Shown here: one piece after another, positions 26,360 to 47,491 of the stretch
Layout: every line of letters begins with the position of its first letter
Numbering within the stretch: the first letter of the stretch is position 1
NCBI GenBank assembly: GCA_030390025.1
Contig: CM059431.1
Span: forward strand, 118,360,001-118,424,000
Length of the DNA stretch: 64,000 bases
Source: Squalus acanthias
Taxonomy: Eukaryota
Direction of reading: 5' to 3'
The notes under the pieces: generated by a model
The model's input: the letters and a program-made list of their open reading frames with translations, nothing else
The model's database searches: none
What the model was told of the DNA's origin: nothing
Made by a program: the position numbers and the translations under genes

Positions 26360-27485
26360 TGTAAGCGGTTTTGATCCGAGCCCAATTGCTAGACGGATGG
26401 TTCGAATCACCCCCGCCTTACGAAAGTTCTATACCCGGGAATTATTCAGAGTGTAAATGGAATAAGTCACGGACAGGAATGCGTCGGTGAAAAATCAAAC
26501 TTATATTTATTTGGTCTAACATACACTGGCTAAAACATGCACCACTAAACAAAATCACTGTCTCTGTGGAGAATAAGATCCAGGTTACAAACAACATACA
26601 TACAGTACACAACTGGGGACTATAACATGCAGTAATTCCCTTGTTGCTATGGTGGACTAACTCCACCCCTACCAATGAATTACCCAGTCGCATAAGCCCC
26701 TTCGCCTGGCTGAACCAAACGAAGCTTCCACCCCGGAATAGCCCCAAAAAACTTCACTTCTGAGAAAAACCCTGAGCCCTTACACCTCACCCAGCTCGCC
26801 TGGGATATCTGGTTACCGGCTTGGGACACGCGAGACCATGCTTACCACCACACACAGTCGGTCTCGATCGCTCCGCTCAGCTGTGGGAAGTCACTGCCTG
26901 GAGGCCGTTCTCTGTGAGGGGTATGCGGTTCTCAGTCTCAGCGGCTTCTTCCTCTGGTACTTCTTGTTAGGTCGATCTTGGTGGAGCGAGAGCGAGAGAG
27001 AGAGAGAGAGAGAGAGAGAATGGTGGAAAAGGATTATAGGAATTCTTGCTACCCCAATCTTTCCCGCCAATCTTGAAGATCCTTTTGTTTCTAAGCACTC
27101 CGGTGCTTAGTCAGTGATGGGCCATTATCAGACCCATGAGTATTCCATGATTGGATTAATGGCCCTAAGTCTGGGACATATCTCAGTCTTTGTGTTGGGA
27201 AAAACTGGCTCCTCTTCGGCTGGCTAGGCTAGTGGGTTCATTGTTCAGCTTCTCTTCTGAGATGGAGGTGAGAACTGCTTTTGCATATTAGAGTGGCTTT
27301 CTAATAGGTTCAAGTTAACGGGTGCCTCAGAGTCCTCAGCCCCTTCGTCAATGCCCCCGCCCCTTCCTTTTTCCAGGACTGTCGTGCGAACCCATACATT
27401 CTGGATGACTGACAGTTCTTTTGTCACAGCCAACTGCCATGCGTTCTCTGGAGTTTTAACAAACCAGTTTTTCACGTATCACACA
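26360..27485 (-). mobile_element. Solo LTR
   Basis: TGT...ACA termini; 4-bp TSD GGTC (26356-26359, 27486-27489); polyA signal on minus (tttatt ~26506); paralog at 36171-37440. Confidence 0.75.
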
Positions 27486-28982
27486 GGTCGATCCCATCAC
27501 AGGGAAAATACCCTCAGAAAAATCCCATAAAATCTACAAAATATTCTCGACTGAGTCCATTCTTTAAACAGAGACTTTGCGATCTCTTCAGGTCTCACAC
27601 CCCTTAACCCCTGCTCCCAGTACTCCTACACCCAACCTCCACATCCCAGCACCACCCTTCCAGCAGTGCAACGACTCAATCATTATCCCACCACTTCTAC
27701 TCCCAGACCTTTGAACTCCCTTTCACTATTCCCACCCTCTCCTGCTGCTGTCCCAGTGCTCCCACCCCCCAAGAAGACCTTGTCATCTTTGATCCCCTTC
27801 AGTGTGCTCCCATTACCAAGGACTCCTCTAATTGGTTTGACACCTTAAGACACCCATCCCACTCCTACCAGAGGCTTGTAGTGTCTTCCTATATAACCTT
27901 CCACTCCACTACTACATCACAACTATACATCACTCCAGCATCAAATATCCCCTCCCTTGCAGATACCAGTACCCAGATTCCCAGAGGTCCCATATTCCAA
28001 GACAATCATCCCAACATTAAAATAACACAAACTCCCACTCTCTAGTATTACATCCCTCTGATGCTGCCAGACACCACTACCTCCCATCTGTGCTCAAACA
28101 CCCAAGAACCTCCCAATACTACACAATGATATGGTTCTCTCCAATGCCCAGTACAGCTATGATTAAACCCTGTAACCTACTCTCTGCAGAACTGCATCCT
28201 AGAATATCTCATTATCATCCGCCTCTGTATTCTGGACTTTAAATAAAAGTACATGAAAACGATTGACTTACAAATTGTCTAAGGTGAAAAGAAATTCAGA
28301 AGCCTATGCCAGGAAAATGTCTCTGCAGCTTTCCCATAGAACAGCTGAAGATTGCTCTAAAGATCGCTGGAAATGGCTGCCTCCCAACTTGTATTGCCTG
28401 TGGACATCTGGAAATGACGCTCATTAGGCGAGCAGAGACGCCAGGGTCTTAGTTGTGTCACTTGACCCCTGTCAGCATACATGTCTGTTTCTGATAACAG
28501 CGCCATTCACCAGGATACAGATCCATCCAAATCTCAGGTTGGCTGTTAACGCAGTGGTAAGTCAGCGCGACTAACCACTGCTTGATTTTGGTTCTCCTAT
28601 CAAATGTAATCGGAGTGGTAACAACAACAAAATCACCCCCATGATAATTATTAAGTCCACTGATTTATACTTTCCAGACAAATATGTACATAATCATGCA
28701 ATTCAACCTAAAAATACCACAAGCCTACTGACAATACTGTGTAATAAAAAAAAAATGGAATTTAATCAATCACTGCAAATAGTGGCCTTGATGATATATA
28801 ATAAATTACATGGGCTATAATAGCATAGTTTATGACTCTCCATAATAAAAACATAATTTGATTTATTCAATTACCAGGAATCAGTAGTGCTATAATATAA
28901 TGTTTACCATCATTATAAAACAGCATATCCTCCAAATCACCATGGGAGATCCACTAGTACATACAATGGAAAAGTCCATAAT

Positions 28983-30914: not shown

Positions 30915-31596
30915 GGGCTGGATTTTGTCTTGGGGTCGGGTTGGGGTCGTGTAATCCGCATTTCGTGTCTCCCCCCCCCGACTCCAGATTAATGTGGATG
31001 CCTGATGCAATTTTCACTTAATTGGGCAATTGAGTTGCAGCATGTGGGAACCCATGAACTAATTAGTGGTAAAGTCGCCTCTGATGATGTCATCATTGCT
31101 GACTGCCTGCTCTCAGAGGTTGTCTGGCTACTGGTGAGAGAGGATCTGTCTGCATTGCTTCTGATGTGAGTGGACCTGGATGCAAATGAGAGAGAGAGCG
31201 AGAGAGAGAGAGAGAGAGAATGAATTTTCACCTAATACTACTACTACCACCTTCATCACATCTCCGTTGTAATAGTGGACTTACAGCTGATAGTCAGCTA
31301 CCCATTTGTGCTCCCGCCAGGTTTCACTGGAGTGTTTCACACCAGGTGTGCTTCACATCAGAAAAGGGTTAAACTAGCTACAACGTTTCAAAATAGCATT
31401 ACAGAGCCAATTTAGGGCTTGTTAAGGGCTTTAATGGCCTCTCCCACCTCTTGGAGGCGGGACGGAGATGGGAACCCCGCAACTGATTTTGTCAAAATTG
31501 CATGGAGGCAGGATGGGGTCGGAAACCCCGACCCCGCAAATTTAACCCCCCACACGCCTCCAAACCCGACTCCATGGGTCATTCAAAATCCAGCCC
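30915..31596. mobile_element. Harbinger MITE of the H1 family
   Basis: Perfect TIR GGGCTGGATTTTG / CAAAATCCAGCCC; TSD TAT (30912-30914, 31597-31599); empty site cactatgactctcc at ~23777; shares gtgggaaccc...aaagtcgcctc.gatgatgtcatca with H1. Confidence 0.93.
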
Positions 31597-31805
31597 TATG
31601 ACTCTCCCTTCTCAACCTTGCTAAATACAACCTCTGAGGGATGGGGAGTTGAAATTGTGATGGCTCTTGACGGAGGTGTTGATAGTGATGCAGGGTGCAA
31701 TAGGTTATGGCCTCCATGAAGACCCAGGTAGTGCCTACAGGTTGTTCTTTTATTTCTGATAAAGCAAAAGAGAACAGAATGCTTCAATGATGCTTCAAAT
31801 AGCAA

Positions 31806-31923
31806 AATTGAGAGGTTGCACAACACCAGGTTATAGTCCAACAGTTTTATTTGAAATCACAAGCTTTCGGAGCTTACTACTCCTTCGTCGGGTGAAGTAA
31901 AAAGATACAGAATCGCCACCATT
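31806..31923 (-). mobile_element. 118-bp Penelope-derived micro-insertion with hammerhead motif (family B; core CUGA mutated to CCGA)
   Basis: TSD AAATAGCAA (31797-31805, 31924-31932); empty site at ~23980; hammerhead-like 31857-31895 followed by AATAAA on minus. Confidence 0.8.
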
Positions 31924-33148: not shown

Positions 33149-34817
33149 TTATGATCTAAAATTGTTGAACTCGATATTGAGTCCAGAGGGCTGTAGCGTG
33201 CCGAAACGAAAGATGAGGTGCTGTTCCTCGAGCTTACGCTGCGCTTCCGTGGAACAGTGTAATAGGACGAGGACGGTGAGGTCAGAGTGGGAGTGAAGCG
33301 GTGAATTAAAGTGACAGGCGACCGGGAGCTCAGGGTTCCCCCTTACGGACTGAACGGAGGTGTTCCGCAAAGCGGTCACCCAATCTGCGTTTGGTCTCCC
33401 CAATGTAGAGGAGACCACATCGTGAGCAGCGAATACAGCATACTAAATTGCAGGAAGTACAAGTAAATCGCTGTTTCACCTGGAAGGGGTGTTTGGGGCC
33501 CTGGACAGTGGGAAGAGGGGAGGTATAAGGGCATGTGTTGCATCTCCTGCGCTTGCACGGGAAGGTGCCGGGCGAAGGGGAAGGGGTGCTGGGGGTGGTA
33601 GAGGAGTGGACTAGGGTGTCGCGGAGGGAGCGGTCCCTGCGGAATGCTGAAAGGGGAGGTGAGGGGAAGATGCGTTTGGTGGTGGGATCACGCTGGAGGT
33701 GGCGGAAATGGCGGAGGATGATCCGTTGAATGTGGAGGCTGGTGGGGTGAAAGGTGAGGACAAGGGGAACTCTATCGTGGTTCCGAGAGGGAGGGGCAGG
33801 GGTGAGGGCAGAAGTGCGGGAGATAGAATGGACACGGTCGAGAGCCGTGTCGACCACGGTAGAGGGGAATCCTCGGTTGAGGAAAAAGGAAGACATGTCG
33901 GAAGCACTGGTATGGAAGGTGGCATCATCAGAGCAGATGCGGCGGAGACGGAGAAACTGGGAGAATGGAATAGAGTCCTTACAGGAGACGGGGTGGGAGG
34001 AAGTGTAATCCAGGTAGCTGTGGGAGTCAGTGGGCTTGTAGTGAATGTTAGTCAATAACCTATCCCCAGAGATGGAGACGGAGAAGTCGAGGAAGGGAAG
34101 GGAAGAGTCGGAGATGGACCATGTGAAGGTGAGGGAATGGTGGAAATTGGAAGCATAGTGAATGAAATTTTCTAGTTCAGGGCGAGAGCAGGAGACGGCA
34201 CCGATACATTCATCAATGTACCGGAAAAAGAGGTGAGGGAGGGGACCCAAGTAGGACTGGAACAAAGAGTGTTCCACATATCCCACGAAAAGGCAGACAT
34301 AGCTAGGACCCATGCGGGTACCCATAGCAACACCTTTAATTTGGAGGAAATGGGTGGAGTCAAAGGAGAAGTTGTTCAATGTGAGAACAAGTTCAGCCAG
34401 GCAGAGGAGGGTGGTGGTGGATGGGGACTGGTTGGGCCTCTGTTCAAGGAAGAAGCGGAGTGCCCTCAGGCCATCCTGGTGGGGAATGGAGGTGTAGAGG
34501 GATTGTACGTCCATAGTGAAGAGGAGGTGGTTGGGGCCGGGAAACTGGAAACTGTTAAAATGGCGGAGGGCGTCGGAAGAGTCGCGGATGTAGGTGGGAA
34601 GAGACTGGACAAGGGGAGAAAAAATAGAGTCGAGATAGGAAGAGATAAGTTCTGTGGGGCAAGAACAGGCTGAAACGATGGGTCTACCAGGGCAGTCCTG
34701 TTTGTGGATCTTGGGAAGGAGGTAGAAGCAGGCTGTGCGGGGTTGGGGAACTATGAGGTTGGCGGCCGTGGGGGGAAGATCTCCAGAGGAGATGAGGTCA
34801 GTGACGGTCTTGGAAAT
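33149..34817 (-). pseudogene. Penelope reverse transcriptase + GIY-YIG endonuclease (truncated)
   Basis: FYLLPKIHK..PGRPIVS, TMDVQSLYTSIP, GVAMGTRMGPSY, RYIDE (YIDD expected), YKPTD, CSRCGLLYIGETKRRLGDRFAEH; frameshift at ~33340. The track ORF 33330-35120 has an N-terminus read from the minisatellite. Confidence 0.92.
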
Positions 34818-35020
34818 GTGATTGGGAGGGCTGGGGGCAGGTTGGTGTTCGGGAGGGCTCGGGGCAGGCTGATGATCGGGAGGGCTGGGGGTGACGCTGG
34901 AGATCGGGAGGGCTGGGGGCAGGCTGGAGATCGGGAGGGCTGGGGGCAGGCTGGAGATCGGGAGGGCTGGGGGCAGGCTGGAGATCGGGAGAGATGGGGG
35001 CAGGCTGGAGATCGGGAGGG
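34818..35020 (+). repeat. Minisatellite copy B, part 2
   Basis: About 8 further 24-bp units. Confidence 0.9.
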
Positions 35021-35337
35021 CCAGTGGTAGAGAGATGGAGGCTAGAGTTTGAGGCTGGGGGAGGCCGAATGCTTTCTTGAGCGGCCTGGGGGGAGCACTC
35101 CTGCTCCGCCTGGCCCACAAGGAGTACTAAAGAAGCCACTTACCTTCGGGAGCCGACAGCTCCAGCCTCGGATCAGCTGCCAGTAATCCCTAAAAGCAGT
35201 GACCATATCATAGAGCTGCGCAATTTCCGAGCAATCTGCATACCACAAATTGAGGGTACATTTATCTTGTCTGAAGATACTTAAAAAATGATTACTTAGG
35301 AACTAACTGCCATATGCAGCTCCTAATTGTAACTTTA

Positions 35338-36170: not shown

Positions 36171-37440
36171 TGTAAGCAGTTTTGATCCTAGCCCAATTGC
36201 TAGACGGACGGTTCGAATTGCCCCCGCCTTACAAAAGTTCTATACCCGGGAATTATTATTCAGAGTGTAAATGGAATAAGTCACGGACAGGAATGCTTCG
36301 GTGAAAAATCAAACTTATATTTATTTGGTCTACCATACACTGGCTAAAACATGCACTACTAAACAAAACCACTGTCTCTGTGGAGAATAAGATCCAGGTT
36401 ACAAACAACATACATACAGTACACAACTGGGGACTGTAACATGCAGTAATTCCCTTGTTGCTTTGGTGGACTCTAACTCCACCCCGACCAACGAATTACC
36501 CAGTCGCATAAGCCTCTTCGCCTGGCTGAACCAAACGAAGCTTCCACCCCGGAATAGCCCCAAAAAACTTCACTTCTGAGAAAAACCCTGAGCCCTTACA
36601 CCTCTGAGAGGTCGCACAGCACCAGGTTATAGTCCTACAGTTTTATTTGAAATCACAAGCTTTCGGAGCTATCGATCGCCCCTTCCTCAGGTGAAGTAGC
36701 CTTACACCTCACCCAGCTCGCCTGGGATATCTGGTTACCGGCTTGGGACACTCGGGACCATGCTTACCACCACACACAGTCGGTCTCGATCGCTCCGCTC
36801 AGCTGTGGGAAGTCATTGCCTGGAGGCCGTTCCCTGTGAGAGGTATGCAGTTCTCAGTCTCAGCGCCGAATGGCCTACTCCTGCTCCTAGATTCTATGTT
36901 TCTATGTTTCCTCTGGTATTGCTTCTTGTTAGGTCGATCTTGGTGGAGCGAGAGCAAGAGAGAGAGAGAATGTTGGAAAAGGATTTATCTTTATAGGAGT
37001 CTTGCTACCCCTATCTTTCCCGCCAATCTTTAAAATCCTTTTTGTTTCAAGCACTCCAGTGCTTAGTTGGTGATGGGCCATCATCAGACCCATGAGTATT
37101 CCGTGATTGGACTAATGGCCCTAAGTCTGGGACATATCTCGGTCTTTGTGTTGGGAAAAACTGTCTCCTGTTCAGCTGGCTAGGCTAGTGGGTTCATTGT
37201 TCTGCTTCTCTTCTGAGATGGAGGTGAGAACTGCTTTTGCATATTAGAATTGCTTTCTAATAGGTTCAAGTTAACGGGTGCCTCAGGGTCCTCAGCCCCT
37301 TTGTCAATGCCCCCCCCTCTTCCTTTTTCCAGGACTGTCGTGTGAACCCATCCATTCTGGATGACTGACAGTTCATTTGTCACAGCCAACTGCCATGCGT
37401 TCTCTGGAGTTTTAACAAACCAGTTTTTCACGTATCTGCA
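36171..37440 (-). mobile_element. Solo LTR (duplicate) carrying two micro-insertions
   Basis: Paralog of 26360-27485; contains 36605-36699 and a CR1 tail fragment at ~36865-36908 (ccgaatggcctactcctgctcctagattctatgtttctatg). Confidence 0.72.
36605..36699 (-). mobile_element. 95-bp Penelope-derived micro-insertion with intact hammerhead motif (family B)
   Basis: TSD CCTTACACCTC (36594-36604, 36700-36710); empty site at ~26778; minus strand tcac-CTGAGGA-a-ggggc(gatcgata)gctcc-GAAA-GC-TT-gtga then AATAAA. Confidence 0.85.
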
Positions 37441-39387
37441 AAGACGATCCTATCACAGGGAAGTTACCCTCAGAAAAATCCCATAAAATCCACAAAATAT
37501 TCTCAACTGAGTCCATTCTTCAAACAGAGACTTTGCGATCTCTTCAGGTCTCACACCACTTAACCCCTGCTCCCAGTACTCCTACACCCAACCTCCACAT
37601 CCCAGCACCACCCTTCCAGCAGTGCAATGACTCAGAATCATTATCCCACCACTTCTACTCCCAGACCTTTGAACTCCCTTTCACTATTCCCACCCTCTCC
37701 TGCTGCTGTCCCAGTGCTCCCACCCCCCAAGAAGACCTTGTCATCTTTGATCCCCTTCAGTGTGCTCCCATTACCAAGGACTCCTCTAATTGGTTTGGCA
37801 CCTTAAGACACCCATCCCACTCCTACCAGTGGCTTGTCGTGTCTTCCTATAGAACCTCCCACTCCACTACTACAACACAACTATACATCACTCCAGCATC
37901 AAATATCCCCCTCCCCTTGCAGATACCAGTACCCAGATTCCCAGAGGTCCCATATCCCAGGACAATCATCCCAACATTAAAATAACACAAACTCCCACTC
38001 TCTAGTATTACATCCCTCTGATCCTGCCAGACACCACTACCTCCCATCTGTGCTCTAACACCCAGGAACCTCCCAATACTACACAATGATAAGGTTCTCC
38101 CCAATGCCCAGTACAGCTACGTTTAATCCCTGTAACCTACTCTCTGCAGAACTGCATCCTAGAATATCTCATTATCATCCGCCTCTGTATTCTGGACTTT
38201 AAATAAAAGTACATGAAAACAATTGACTTACAAATTGTCTAAGGTGAAAAAAAATGTAGAAGCCTATGCCAGGAAAATGTCTCTGCAGCTTTCCCGTAGA
38301 ACAGCTGAAGATTGCACTAAACATCGCTGGAAATGGCTGCCTCCCAACTTGTATTGCCTGTGGACATCTGGAAGTGACGCTCATTAGGCGAGCAGAGACG
38401 CCAGGGTCTTAGTTGTGTCACTTGACCCCTGTCAGCATACATGTCTGTTTCTGATAATAGCGCCATTTACCAGGATACAGATCCATCCAAATCTCAGGTT
38501 GGCTGTTAACGCAGTGGTAAGTCAGCGCGACTAACCACTGCTTGATTTTGGTTCTCCTATCAAATGTAATCGGAGTGGTAACAACAACAAAATCACCCCC
38601 ATGATAATTATTAAGTCCACTGATTTATACTTTCCAGACAAATATGTACATAATCATGCAATTCAACCTAAAAATACCACAAGCCTACTGACAATACTGT
38701 GTAATAAAAAAAAAATGGAATTTAATCAATCACTGCAAATAGTGGCCTTGATGATATATAATAAATTACATGGGCTATAATAGCATATTTTATGACTCTC
38801 CATAATAAAAACATAATTTGATTTATTCAATTACCAGGAATCAGTAGTGCTATAATATAATGTTTACCATCATTATAAAACAGCATATCCTCCAAATCAC
38901 CATGGGAGATCCACTAGTACATACAATGGAAAAGTCCATAATGGCCCGGATATTCCGATCGGAGGCTTCCCGTGGGCGGAAGCCCCCGACCTGCAAAAAA
39001 GAACTGCACCGACCTTAATGCTCAGGGCACACGTAAACTTCCGATGTAATCCTGAGGACTCCTGGGCAACGTATGATGTCACGCCGCCCAGGAGCGCAGC
39101 GTGCGCGGAGTTTAGGGTTTTGCGTGTAGGGGAGACCCGCCCTCAAAAGTTATATTTGCATAGGCCACGCCCCTGATTTTTTTCAACTCTTCAGAAACAT
39201 TGGCAACCGAAAGTAGCTGCAAAACTCAATGGTAAGTTGTTTCTTTATAGTTTTTTCAATCTTTTGTAAACTTTTAGAAACTTTTAAAGACTTACATGGA
39301 TTTGAAAAATCTTAAATAGTTTTAAAGAGATTTGAAGCAATTTAAAGGGTTTTAAAAGCCCTGAAAACATTTTTTCCATCCATTTTA

Positions 39388-39859
39388 ATGAATCAGCAAA
39401 GTGAAATGGAAGGACTGAGCACAATTCACATCATTAAGAGAGCTCAGAATTTCAGTGACGCTGACAACAGCACACTCCTCAATGAAATTGAGGCGAAGCG
39501 CCCGCGGATATTTGGGAATGAGAAGTCCAGGGCGCCGCGCAAAGGACAGATGATAGCTTGGTCAGAAGTTGCCCAGGCTGTCAGCGCAAACTCCACCATT
39601 CCACGGACAGCGGAACAATGCCATTACTTTGACTCCCGCAGAACCGCCCTTACCTGCTCCCAGCGCAGAAACAGTGCAGGCCCATGAGACAGCAGCTCCG
39701 CCAGTCCTGATGCAAGCAAACGTTGCCTTTCAGCAGCAGCAGCAGCAGCAACCCTGTCAGGAGGCAATTGCTGAAGGGCAAGAGATGGCACACGGGGGCC
39801 TTTCAATTGGCAGCAGAGGGCTCCGGTCACGGGGAAGGGGAAAGCGCAGGAGACAGTAG
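39388..39859 (+). pseudogene. Harbinger MADF/Myb-SANT gene, internally deleted
   Basis: KRAQNFSDADNSTLLNEIE...AWSEVAQAVSANSTIPRTAEQC, then loss of the expected RKR..DL helix and a frameshift into a basic C-terminal tail (RGLRSRGRGKRRRQ*). Confidence 0.8.
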
Positions 39860-40392
39860 GTTGTCACCTTTTGCACAATCCACCTCCTTTGACCCTCAGA
39901 CACAGATGCGAGGGGGCAAATCATTCAATTCTTTAATGTTTCGTTTTATTCAAATGTTAAATGTTGTCGTTGCTTTTTTTATTGAAATATATATTTGTGA
40001 CTGAAAGTGTATGTAACCGTTTTGATTAAAAAATACAGCCTCTAGTCACTTTGAAAAAAATTTCAACTTTTTTATTTGCAAAAATATTTAAAATTACAAC
40101 TGTTTAAAAATTAGAAAATAGCTAGTTTCCATCATGAATGTCTTTATTGCACTAAGAAATCAAAAAAGTCACTTTAAACTGTTTACAAATTTTATTCAAA
40201 AAAGTTATGTTTGCGAATGTTTGAAAAGTAGAAAATAGCTAGTTAACATTTAAAAGTTAAAAACTAAGAACATCAAAACTGAAACTCAAAAGTCTTTGAT
40301 GCTGCAATAGAAGTTCACTGTTTCACTTTAAATTGTGTCTGTTCCTTTCTTTGCCTTGCTGGGGGAGGGGGAGGTACAAGGCAACACTATCA

Positions 40393-40719
40393 TCACCTTG
40401 TGAAGGTGTCGGCTGCTAGCAGTTCCCGAGCAGCCTTACTTTCGGCAGCACTTGGCTCCTCCCCATCAGGCCTGGCCACAGGCACATTGGCATTGTCCAT
40501 GTCCTCCATTTCAGCAGGGAGATCCTCTGCAGGGTTAAGGGTCAATCCTTCCCGCAGGGCAAAGTTATGCAAAGCACAACAGGCCACCACAATCCTTGCC
40601 ACTTTCAGAGGAGAATACTGCAAGGTCCCCCCTGACCTGTCCAGGCACCGGAAGCGTGATTTCAGAACCCCGATTGTCCTCTCCACCATTTGCCGTGTGG
40701 ACACGTGTGCCTGGTTGTA
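40393..40719 (-). pseudogene. HARBI1-like Harbinger DDE transposase, C-terminal fragment
   Basis: [37 protein letters not shown]...IVVACCALHN; upstream part replaced by the CR1. Confidence 0.9.
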
Positions 40720-40956
40720 TAAGAGCATAAGAACATAAGAACTAGGAGCAGGAGTAGGCCAATCGGCCCCTCAAGCCTGCTCCGCCATTCAATAAGATCA
40801 TGGCTGATCTGATCCTAATCGCCAATCTACTATCTATCACAGAACCATCTCCTGCATCTAACAGAATTGCACACACGAAATAGGAGCAGAATCAGGCTAC
40901 ACGGTCCCTGGGTCCGCTCCACTACCCACAGGGCCATGACCGATCCGAACCTAGAC

Positions 40957-45343: not shown

Positions 45344-47039
45344 TTAAAAACTTACCTCAGGCTTTCTACAAAGAACTTTGCTCACTTTCACAATTAAAAA
45401 TGTTCTGTTTCCAAGCTGAAAGAGTTCTTCTTCCTGGAGCTTCTTCCGGTAGAATGCAGGCTGTACGCCTGCTTTTACTAGGCGCAGCTATTTCGGATGT
45501 ACCTGGACTGAAGCATTTGAGAAAAAATCAGAACTTTTAGCCGGTAGCGCTGCCTATCCTGCGCATGCGTTTGATCTGTCAAGCCCTTTCTTGACAGATC
45601 GGAAATGCCGGTTTCCAGCGCATGCGCTGTGCATGCCTGAAACCGGCATTTCCGATGTCCCTACAGGTGAGTACACAGCACATACCCAGCCGTAGGGATC
45701 GGAATATCCGGGCCATTTGTCAATTACCCTTTGTAAGACTAGTTTCTGACTAGATTCATTGGTCTCTGTTAAATAGCGAGCAAAGTGCTGATTATGGTTT
45801 GCAAATTGAGTGTACTTCCATCCTCTCCACGCAACTCGTCCTCAGGCAAGGCTTGCTTGTCTCAAAATTCTCATTTGGTTTGAGCAATTGCTTTTGAAAG
45901 AACACTTATACTTTTTCAAATTCCTTGCTTTTATCCCCATAGATGTCTAAACCAACACGTCTGTGAACCCCTTGATGTAGGATTCCTGGAAAATCCCCGC
46001 AATATTTCATACTTGTATCCAGTTAACCAATACAGTGGTGAATATTCAAGAAAGATGGGCACACGCTGCATATTTACACTGAAAATCTTCACATTGGGAC
46101 AAACCCAATTCTTTTTAATTAAAAAAACAGTGATGTAATTAAAAAAAAGCTTTCACCAAAGACTTGATCTGATTTTATAGTAAATGAAACAAGCACTTCA
46201 AACTTTGTTGCATGTGCCATGAGATTGACTAACTCAGCAGAGACCAGTCATTTAATGTGGGACCTTCTTGTCTGTATGCCTCAATATCACACCAGATGGT
46301 ACATTTAACAACTAAGCTATCAAGGTAACTATAAGCAACATTTATTACCTTGGCAGTCCAAATGAATGGAAGGTTTTGCTTTAACTATGAAGATATCACT
46401 TTGGTTAAGTAAACATGGATAATTTAGGTTTGACGCTAATTTTTTCATCTTTTTTTATCTCTTCACTCTTTCTTTGCACTTAATCATCTGCTGTTTCTAC
46501 AGCTGTTGCAGAAAAGATTATTTTGCACTCATCAAGTTGATGTGACTTTCTATTCATTTGATCGATTCATCTGTCAATCACAATCACTGAGCAAGAGAAA
46601 ATCTTAGTTTTAAAGAACTGTTATTCATAATGACACTTATCTTTGTTAGATGGGATGCAGTAGAAAGCTGAAGATTATAATCATGAGTTCGGTGTAGCAA
46701 CCGGCCTTTCACAAAATGTGTATTCAACAATGAGCAACTGTCAATATGGTGAACACGATTCCTGTGGCTATGTGAGCACTTGCGCTTAAGCATTTCCAAT
46801 GATGCTTCATTGAAACGACCACAATCAGCAGATATTAAAGCTTTCAAATTTGAACGACTAAGTAGGAGGCTCTGGTGGATGGGGAGGGGATATCCATGCA
46901 GCCAGCAGGTGGTTTGACACGCTGGACCCCCTGGGACACATCTCATTGTCTTGGCTGTGCTCTTTGTTGTAGCGAATAATGTGAATAGATTTTGTCTGGG
47001 TTTAAATTGTGAATTCTGGGAGATTCTCTCATTGCTAAC

Positions 47040-47077
47040 TTACCTGACGAAGGAGCGATAGCTCCGAAAGCTTGTAA
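47040..47077 (+). ncRNA. Minimal hammerhead ribozyme motif (family B) in a Penelope pLTR fragment (to ~47167)
   Basis: ttac-CTGACGA-a-ggagc(gata)gctcc-GAAA-GC-TT-gtaa, followed by AATAAA and ggactataacctggtgttgtg as in the 31806 and 36605 inserts. Confidence 0.82.
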
Positions 47078-47491
47078 AATTAAATAAATCTGTTGGACTA
47101 TAACCTGGTGTTGTGCGACTTCTCATTTTTGTCCACCCCAGTCCAACGCCGGCATCTCCACATCATGACCTCTAATAAGTAGGAAAGGCAAACCATAAGA
47201 GTTTTAAACTGAAGAAACAGCACATTATTAATAATATTAGTGTAACAATCCTGAGGGATTGTGCTATAGGAAGGTAAAGTTATGGCTTGTTCTATGCTTG
47301 GGTATATAAGGCAAAACCCAGGAGATTTTGTGGAGAGAGAGAAAGTGGGGGAGAGAACGAAGGCAAAGTGCTGTTGCAGTTGCTGGCTTGTAACATTGTT
47401 GCTGGTTATTATTAAATGCACTCTGTTCTATAGACATAACCATGGTATGTTATCAGAAGAAGTTGAAGATGCTGCTATCCAGTGTTTAAAA

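Follow-up and report, generated by a model that had tools for sequence, protein, structure and literature searches.

A 95-bp hammerhead-bearing insert in a solo LTR of Squalus acanthias and its relation to an abundant Penelope-like family

The insert, its host LTR and the hammerhead motif

We analysed a 64,000-nucleotide stretch of the Squalus acanthias assembly GCA_030390025.1 (contig CM059431.1, positions 118,360,001 to 118,424,000 of the forward strand), referred to herein as the window, in which a solo LTR carries a 95-nt insert. The features at the locus are listed below; the hammerhead parts are predicted.

36171..~37550, minus strand: host repeat, a solo TG..CA LTR, ERV-like, about 1.23 kb without the insert (paralogue at 26360-27594)
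36594..36604, plus strand: target site duplication (TSD) copy on the 3' side of the element
36605..36699, minus strand: whole insert, from the alignment and genome matches very probably a short solo pLTR, i.e. the 3' end, without tail, of a Neptune/Nematis-type Penelope-like element (PLE)
36605..36635, minus strand: last 31 nt of the insert; of the two 3' end sites in the family, the insert stops at the first, without the 36-51-nt tail
36642..36647, minus strand: AATAAA hexamer, conserved element sequence and putative poly(A) signal
36653..36656, minus strand: hammerhead stem I, 3' strand GUGA
36657..36664, minus strand: GAAA, palindromic AGCU and U17
36665..36682, minus strand: stem II, GGGGC, loop GAUCGAUA and GCUCC
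36683, minus strand: extra A, placed after A9 of the core and before G10.1
36684..36690, minus strand: hammerhead core CUGAGGA, with N7 being G, C or A depending on the subfamily
36691..36694, minus strand: hammerhead stem I, 5' strand UCAC
36693..36699, minus strand: initiator-like heptamer CTACTTC, in which the A at 36697 is the predicted +1
36700..36710, plus strand: TSD copy on the 5' side of the element, CCTTACACCTC
26778..26788, plus strand: target site without an insert, in the paralogous unit

When 26700-26860 and 36510-36780 were aligned globally, a single 106-nt gap appeared, made up of the 95-nt insert (36605-36699) and one TSD copy. This bears out an earlier note on the same DNA, which had described a 95-bp insert with an 11-bp TSD that is missing from the paralogous site. 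The duplicated 11-mer, CCTTACACCTC, is exact on both sides of the insert (36594-36604 and 36700-36710) and occurs once in the paralogue, at 26778-26788. Only one of two tandem units, which are ~96-97% identical, is occupied; the solo LTR was duplicated with its flanks in the local tandem duplication and the insert came later. That order of events, which the note had proposed, is supported by the empty paralogue and by the host LTR elsewhere in the genome, where 40/40 scored matches (of 537 candidates) span the empty site and direct reading confirmed it in 5/5 fetched loci. Paired copies of the LTR found elsewhere, 10-13 kb apart, have gag-, protease-, RNase H- and integrase-like pieces of ORFs between them, and we therefore regard the 1.23-kb repeat as the solo LTR of an ERV-like element. 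Another copy of this LTR, L123, also holds a two-armed stub of the same Penelope family.

Read on the minus strand, the insert has the order UCAC - CUGAGGA - A - GGGGC GAUCGAUA GCUCC - GAAA GCU U / GUGA, followed by AATAAA and 37 bases, and the predicted cut site lies between 36657 and 36656. The type I hammerhead layout claimed for it stands, with a conserved core, covariation in the stems and a candidate palindromic helix III. A hammerhead pattern search matched 115 of the 133 family copies collected. Among these 115, the extra A and GAAAGCTT were found in every copy, although the GAAA of the latter was fixed by the search pattern and only its GCTT was free to vary; N7 and loop II are variable. 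Stem I is UCAC/GUGA in 98 copies and UUAC/GUAA in 10, and stem II, whose loop varies in length, shows a compensatory change from GGAGC/GCUCC to GGAGU/ACUCC (C-G to U-A) in 14. Each stem has one such change, each a single inherited event (10 and 14 copies). The core departs from consensus by U4C in 15 copies.

Comparison with hammerhead models, which had been proposed as a check, gave a divided result: the pattern search succeeded, but an Rfam scan of the insert returned no ribozyme family at E<=10, and its two chance matches at E 4-6 were not ribozymes. An absent Rfam score would be expected of a motif that has no monomeric helix III. The minimum-energy fold of the whole 95-mer is not a hammerhead; stems I and II do form in the 52-nt part. 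For two copies of this 52-nt motif, the co-fold has an energy of -35.1 kcal/mol and pairs stems I and II across the molecules, and the best dimer fold differs from the classical AGCU/AGCU double hammerhead. As predicted from its sequence, helix III is possible through the palindromic AGCU only between two molecules, and the hammerhead of the stub, which cannot form this helix alone, is probably inert here.

The insert had also been read as ending in AAUAAA and a short tail. The hexamer is present at 36647-36642, but the next 37 nt are conserved element sequence rather than A-rich, and no poly(A) was found in the 95-nt insert; both the hexamer and the "tail" are ordinary element sequence. Loose poly(A) ends numbered 0 among the RNA contigs listed, which as contigs cannot show ends.

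The hammerhead motif is not rare in this region, as two more copies lie within the 64-kb window. A second short solo copy, of another subfamily, occupies 31804-31923 on the minus strand; it starts at about -20 relative to its initiator-like A, has a 7-bp TSD (AAATAGC) and is absent from the paralogous unit. A third, older family copy with a longer 5' part and a full tail lies at ~46880-47170 on the plus strand. A different Penelope-like family, with 34% amino-acid identity to the ORF of the family copy L066, is found at 33330-35126 on the minus strand with its 3' region running to ~32770; this copy is inserted in a 27-bp minisatellite of the second unit and has a hammerhead-like motif of its own. 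Harbinger-type remnants, with a Myb/SANT ORF on the plus strand and DDE_Tnp_4 on the minus strand, lie at 39346-40770, and an insertion of ~680 bp with a short CTATGA-like flanking repeat is present in the second unit only (30915-31593).

The family and the ends of its copies

The last 31 nt of the insert have 19,435 exact matches in the genome, against 0 for a control. The whole insert as query gave 46 matches (40 scored of 485 candidates); the closest copy among those scored, L002, is identical at 94/95 positions and continues at least 354 nt upstream, and other copies continue into a 3' UTR and an RT-EN ORF. Pfam placed RVT_1 above cut-off in this ORF and returned no GIY-YIG match, and the endonuclease call comes from motifs and the Atlas, in which the endonuclease segment scored 0.97 against GIY-YIG clusters. 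The ORF gave 0 matches in a PDB sequence search. Its motifs are DKG, YIDD, a CX4CxxC linker and VY..C...C..YIG, a GIY-YIG-like segment with two internal Cys. The linker, CHGKLCKTC, precedes the GIY-YIG segment and fits the CX2-5CxxC motif that defines the Neptune/Nematis clade (PMC8557442; for this and every other paper cited, our statements concern the passages covered). We assign the element to the Neptune/Nematis type, from these motifs rather than from an RT tree.

The remaining features are also those of EN+ PLEs, namely an ORF with RT and C-terminal GIY-YIG, partial tandems and pLTRs, inverted 5'-truncated arms, an optional tail and TSDs of variable length. Copy L066 consists of an inverted arm, a short 141-bp 5' pLTR, the ORF, the 3' UTR, a pLTR and the tail, and tandem copies occur with a period of 3138 bp. 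The TSD is 11 bp at the insert and most solo copies have words of 6-16 nt; a repeated word of at least 6 nt was found at 26/30 copies with a genomic junction, the shortest possibly by chance.

To describe the ends, we used a sample of 101, consisting of 100 listed places of the 31-nt match (first 13 Mb, contig C1) and one neighbour. The sample is anchored on the 3' side and is thus not conditioned on the hammerhead. At the 3' end, 60/101 stop 0-11 nt behind the anchor, 40/101 stop at 36-51 nt and 1/101 reads into the ORF. The family therefore has two 3' end sites ~40 nt apart, and the insert uses the tail-less one. An inverted junction is present at 65/101 ends, by an automatic classification of junctions that is not free of error (it took one long paired arm for genomic, and one 30-nt "TSD" is a flanking repeat). 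Every head-to-head pair (29/29) combines a tailed with a tail-less arm. The arms are alike in subfamily in 25 of the 26 assignable pairs and mixed in one, with three pairs unassignable; the mixed pair, L114, joins arms of two subfamilies, from which we conclude that a single insertion can draw on two RNA molecules. PLEs with a tail on just one end have been described (PMC3846280, PMC8557442), a feature that PMC11167929 links to internal priming at two sites.

Several independent insertions (L046, L061, L075, L077, L084 and others) have near-identical targets, which lie within other repeats. The target CCATCAAA recurs in 5 TSD calls, and CTATGAGATA, ATAGAATA and CTATTTATGAA were also seen. This suggests a target preference aided by homology to the start of the tail.

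The 5' ends lie 5-3067 nt upstream of the anchor (101 ends, three of which reach the edge of the fetched DNA), extending into the 3' UTR and RT-EN ORF, which supports the suggestion that the insert is an extreme 5' truncation of a Penelope-like element. The initiator consensus is YYANWYY, and we measured 5' ends from the A of the initiator-like YYACTTC at the 5' edge of the hammerhead. On this scale 39/101 fall between -10 and +17, 6/101 lie 3' of +17, none lies in -11..-25, and 56/101 occupy a broad stretch from -26 to -3005. The insert starts at -2. A number of junctions precede the predicted +1 by 5-10 nt, which counts against an RNA start at that base. The continuous range of truncations that the earlier note, together with a lack of self-cleavage, had held to count against a separate micro-retroelement is thus present in its span but is not smooth. 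Likewise, a preference for particular ends is borne out in part: the 3' ends are bimodal and the 5' ends are piled up at the hammerhead 5' edge, but the latter scatter over 27 nt.

The rate of ends per base in -10..+17 is 7.5x that of the flanks (6-9x against both sides, tailed and tail-less alike). Copies with a genomic junction show the same peak, with 11/30 in the interval (scan-corrected p 0.003; the interval was chosen after seeing the data, and the correction covers these 30 solo copies only). As 19/41 tailed and 20/60 tail-less copies end in the interval, the site is fixed in the sequence and not in its distance from the priming site. On other chromosomes, 7/29 loci obtained with the insert query start at -9..+7. 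TATATA begins 31-34 nt upstream of the initiator-like A in 43/43 copies with at least 150 nt upstream, these being members of six related subfamilies and not independent; the insert has no TATATA, the TATA box lying outside the short unit. About 5/101 ends are near the predicted cut site (cluster +33..+42), and at most 3 of these could result from the cut itself. Only 2-3/5 solos, a very small number of copies, show an added G ahead of +1 (a cap signature). A raw-read RNA run from another organism gave 0 matching reads. The depth of RNA contigs rises toward the 3' end, a gradient that reflects how other subfamilies have diverged and from which starts cannot be read.

A minor cluster of 5' junctions lies at -26..-39 (7/101; L049/L050, L004), some of which fold back perfectly about the TATA region, which is self-complementary. 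A splice acceptor was considered as the cause of the 5' edge and ruled out, since solo copies are joined to target DNA without a shared upstream exon.

As a control, we anchored copies on the tail and the ORF start; these second-pass copies represent cDNAs that had passed through the ORF and so reached the motif again. Thirty of 41 matches were examined. Five of the 30 end at +40..+73, and of the other 25 none falls in -10..+17, the nearest being at -11, -14 and -16. With L066 moved to the second-pass class, 1/26 second-pass ends and 38/94 of the others are in the interval (p 0.0002), which indicates that the pile-up is mainly a first-pass effect. The contrast has a p of 0.0016 when collapsed by locus, 0.02 with the interval widened to -16, and 0.014 and 0.051 in three matched subfamilies.

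Origin of the short copies

Taken with its family, the insert is very probably the tail-less 3' end of an abundant PLE lodged in a solo LTR, and likely a dead run-off copy; as a dead stub, it is likely to be one among tens of thousands. A single insert of this kind matters little, but the stub population bears on where PLE RNA starts, on the role of the hammerhead and on the origin of tandem and inverted copies.

In PAc, the Poseidon of Anolis (Frangieh et al. 2024, PMC11167929), an endonuclease nick is followed by internal priming at two sites, with uncleaved RNA as the main template, and the first ~172 nt of the ORF are needed on the template. By analogy, the dogfish element would nick its target and prime internally just before the ORF start. 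If linear transcripts begin near the initiator-like A, priming at the first pLTR-ORF junction would copy only 90-140 nt before the enzyme runs off the RNA 5' end, leaving a stub headed by the hammerhead; longer copies would arise from templates in which upstream sequence continues, whether tandem read-through or circles. We lean slightly towards this reading of the sequence, in which a transcript start near the initiator-like A would limit first-junction copies to 90-140 nt and longer copies would need continued templates. The small number of ends at the predicted cut agrees with uncleaved templates (PMC11167929). The Adineta Pen2a pLTR has TATA and initiator-like motifs (PMC8557442, PMC3846280), whereas the TATA-less internal promoter in the pLTR of D. 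virilis Penelope (PMC2377424) counts against a TATA start. Since a stub has neither the TATA box nor the ORF start, neither transcription from its own promoter nor recruitment of the enzyme would be expected.

The same pile-up could have another cause. The element may be what we describe, with its reverse transcriptase blocked at a protein-bound or dimeric hammerhead beside the priming site and the cDNA joined there, on the first pass only because the protein sits at that junction. Such a block would account for the lack of a peak on the second pass with no need of a second template pool, and it fits with the PAc hammerhead, which cleaves only with the element's protein (PMC11167929), and with the co-folding of the 52-nt dimer at -35.1 kcal/mol; a quasi-palindrome in the core region could in addition help inverted arms to join (28/65 inverted junctions are in the interval). 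However, an enzyme halted by the fold would be expected to stop on its 3' side, which it meets first, and only 6/101 ends lie 3' of +17. The sharp upstream edge fits TATA-initiator spacing instead, and solo copies, which cannot use the palindrome, peak alike (11/30). We consider this explanation possible but doubtful. That the copies are truncated at random, with no special site and a peak due to sampling or length, is improbable. Heavy 5' truncation is a known rule for PLEs (PMC8557442) and would describe the 56/101 ends spread from -26 to -3005, but not a per-base rate that is 6-9x higher in the interval in tailed and tail-less copies, from a sample anchored at the 3' end and so not conditioned on the hammerhead; these data largely refute it.

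The earlier note had offered an independent retrozyme or SINE-like unit as its other option, to which we add short RNAs mobilised in trans from many promoter-bearing 3' ends. Short TSD-flanked solos are indeed many (26/30 with the repeated word), short copies are over-represented in two subfamilies, and non-LTR retrozymes are traced to PLE pLTRs in a 2026 preprint (bioRxiv 10.64898/2026.07.22.740005). The share of short copies is uneven between subfamilies (chi-square p 0.03), being 6/9 in the insert's own. Against this, each of the six scored subfamilies contains copies of both kinds, short and long, the nearest relative among scored matches (L002) is longer, and the 101 sampled ends include 0 head-to-tail arrays of the short unit. 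Its 5' ends are scattered over 27 nt rather than fixed, short arms are fused to long arms that match them in subfamily in 25/26 assignable pairs, tailed arms run to and into the ORF start, and the short unit itself is without TATA box and ORF start. The independent unit is not supported by these data, and we regard it as highly improbable.

Returning to run-off from a start near the initiator-like A, plain run-off predicts that full-length copies also stop at the start site. They mostly do not, so a second template pool is needed. Circles have been proposed as PLE templates (PMC4209133), and we offer tentatively, as an unlikely but specific extension, that linear TATA/initiator RNAs yield the 90-140-nt stubs (~40% of ends) while hammerhead-cut, ligated unit-length circles yield long, full-length and tandem copies. 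If this were true, an end-less template would explain why the motif is crossed a second time without a stop, the copies would be genomic evidence for a rolling-circle role of PLE hammerheads, and the 29/29 tailed/tail-less pairs would represent a two-subunit enzyme priming once per initiation site. A pile-up confined to the first pass, in a family that is young and has many identical copies, also provides a cheap and sharp handle for tests. Finally, a stub origin would account for many of the solo minimal hammerheads in genomes without a separate retrozyme.

Comparison with known systems

The literature already describes solo minimal hammerheads of truncated PLEs as well as solo pLTRs, tails and inverted arms. 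Our literature search, in which most matches were covered by passages only, returned no paper in which 5' ends are mapped as piling up at the hammerhead. Cervera and De la Pena (2014; PMC4209133) described minimal hammerheads in metazoan PLE pLTRs, mostly as single motifs of truncated copies. The dogfish motif shares with these the type I layout, a 4-bp helix I, the extra nucleotide between 9 and 10.1, G10.1-C11.1, a palindromic 15.2-16.2 and the presence of many sequence families, as well as solo motifs and opposite-strand pairs 100-700 bp apart. Nothing essential differs, and in the parts covered the 5' ends of the copies are unmapped.

EN+ Neptune/Nematis PLEs form partial tandems with an inverted 5'-truncated arm, and one end may carry a tail of 30-40 bp (PMC8557442, PMC3846280). 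They resemble the present family in their DKG and YIDD RT, CX4CxxC linker, C-terminal GIY-YIG with two internal Cys, TSDs and solo pLTRs; in the present family the rule of a tail on one arm is counted (29/29), and its first-pass-only 5' pile-up is absent from the passages covered. Non-LTR retrozymes (bioRxiv 10.64898/2026.07.22.740005) likewise have a type I hammerhead, are related to pLTRs and are non-coding, but they are tandem units each with a hammerhead, whereas the insert is a monomer and no array of its short unit was found in the 101 ends.

PAc belongs to a different clade, so that its mechanism is carried over by analogy, and its ORF starts inside the hammerhead, whereas the ATG of the dogfish family lies at the end of the tail (PMC11167929). 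The two are nevertheless alike in having two 3' end sites ~40 nt apart, ~52-60 and 90-100 nt behind the predicted cut, and few copies that end at the cut.
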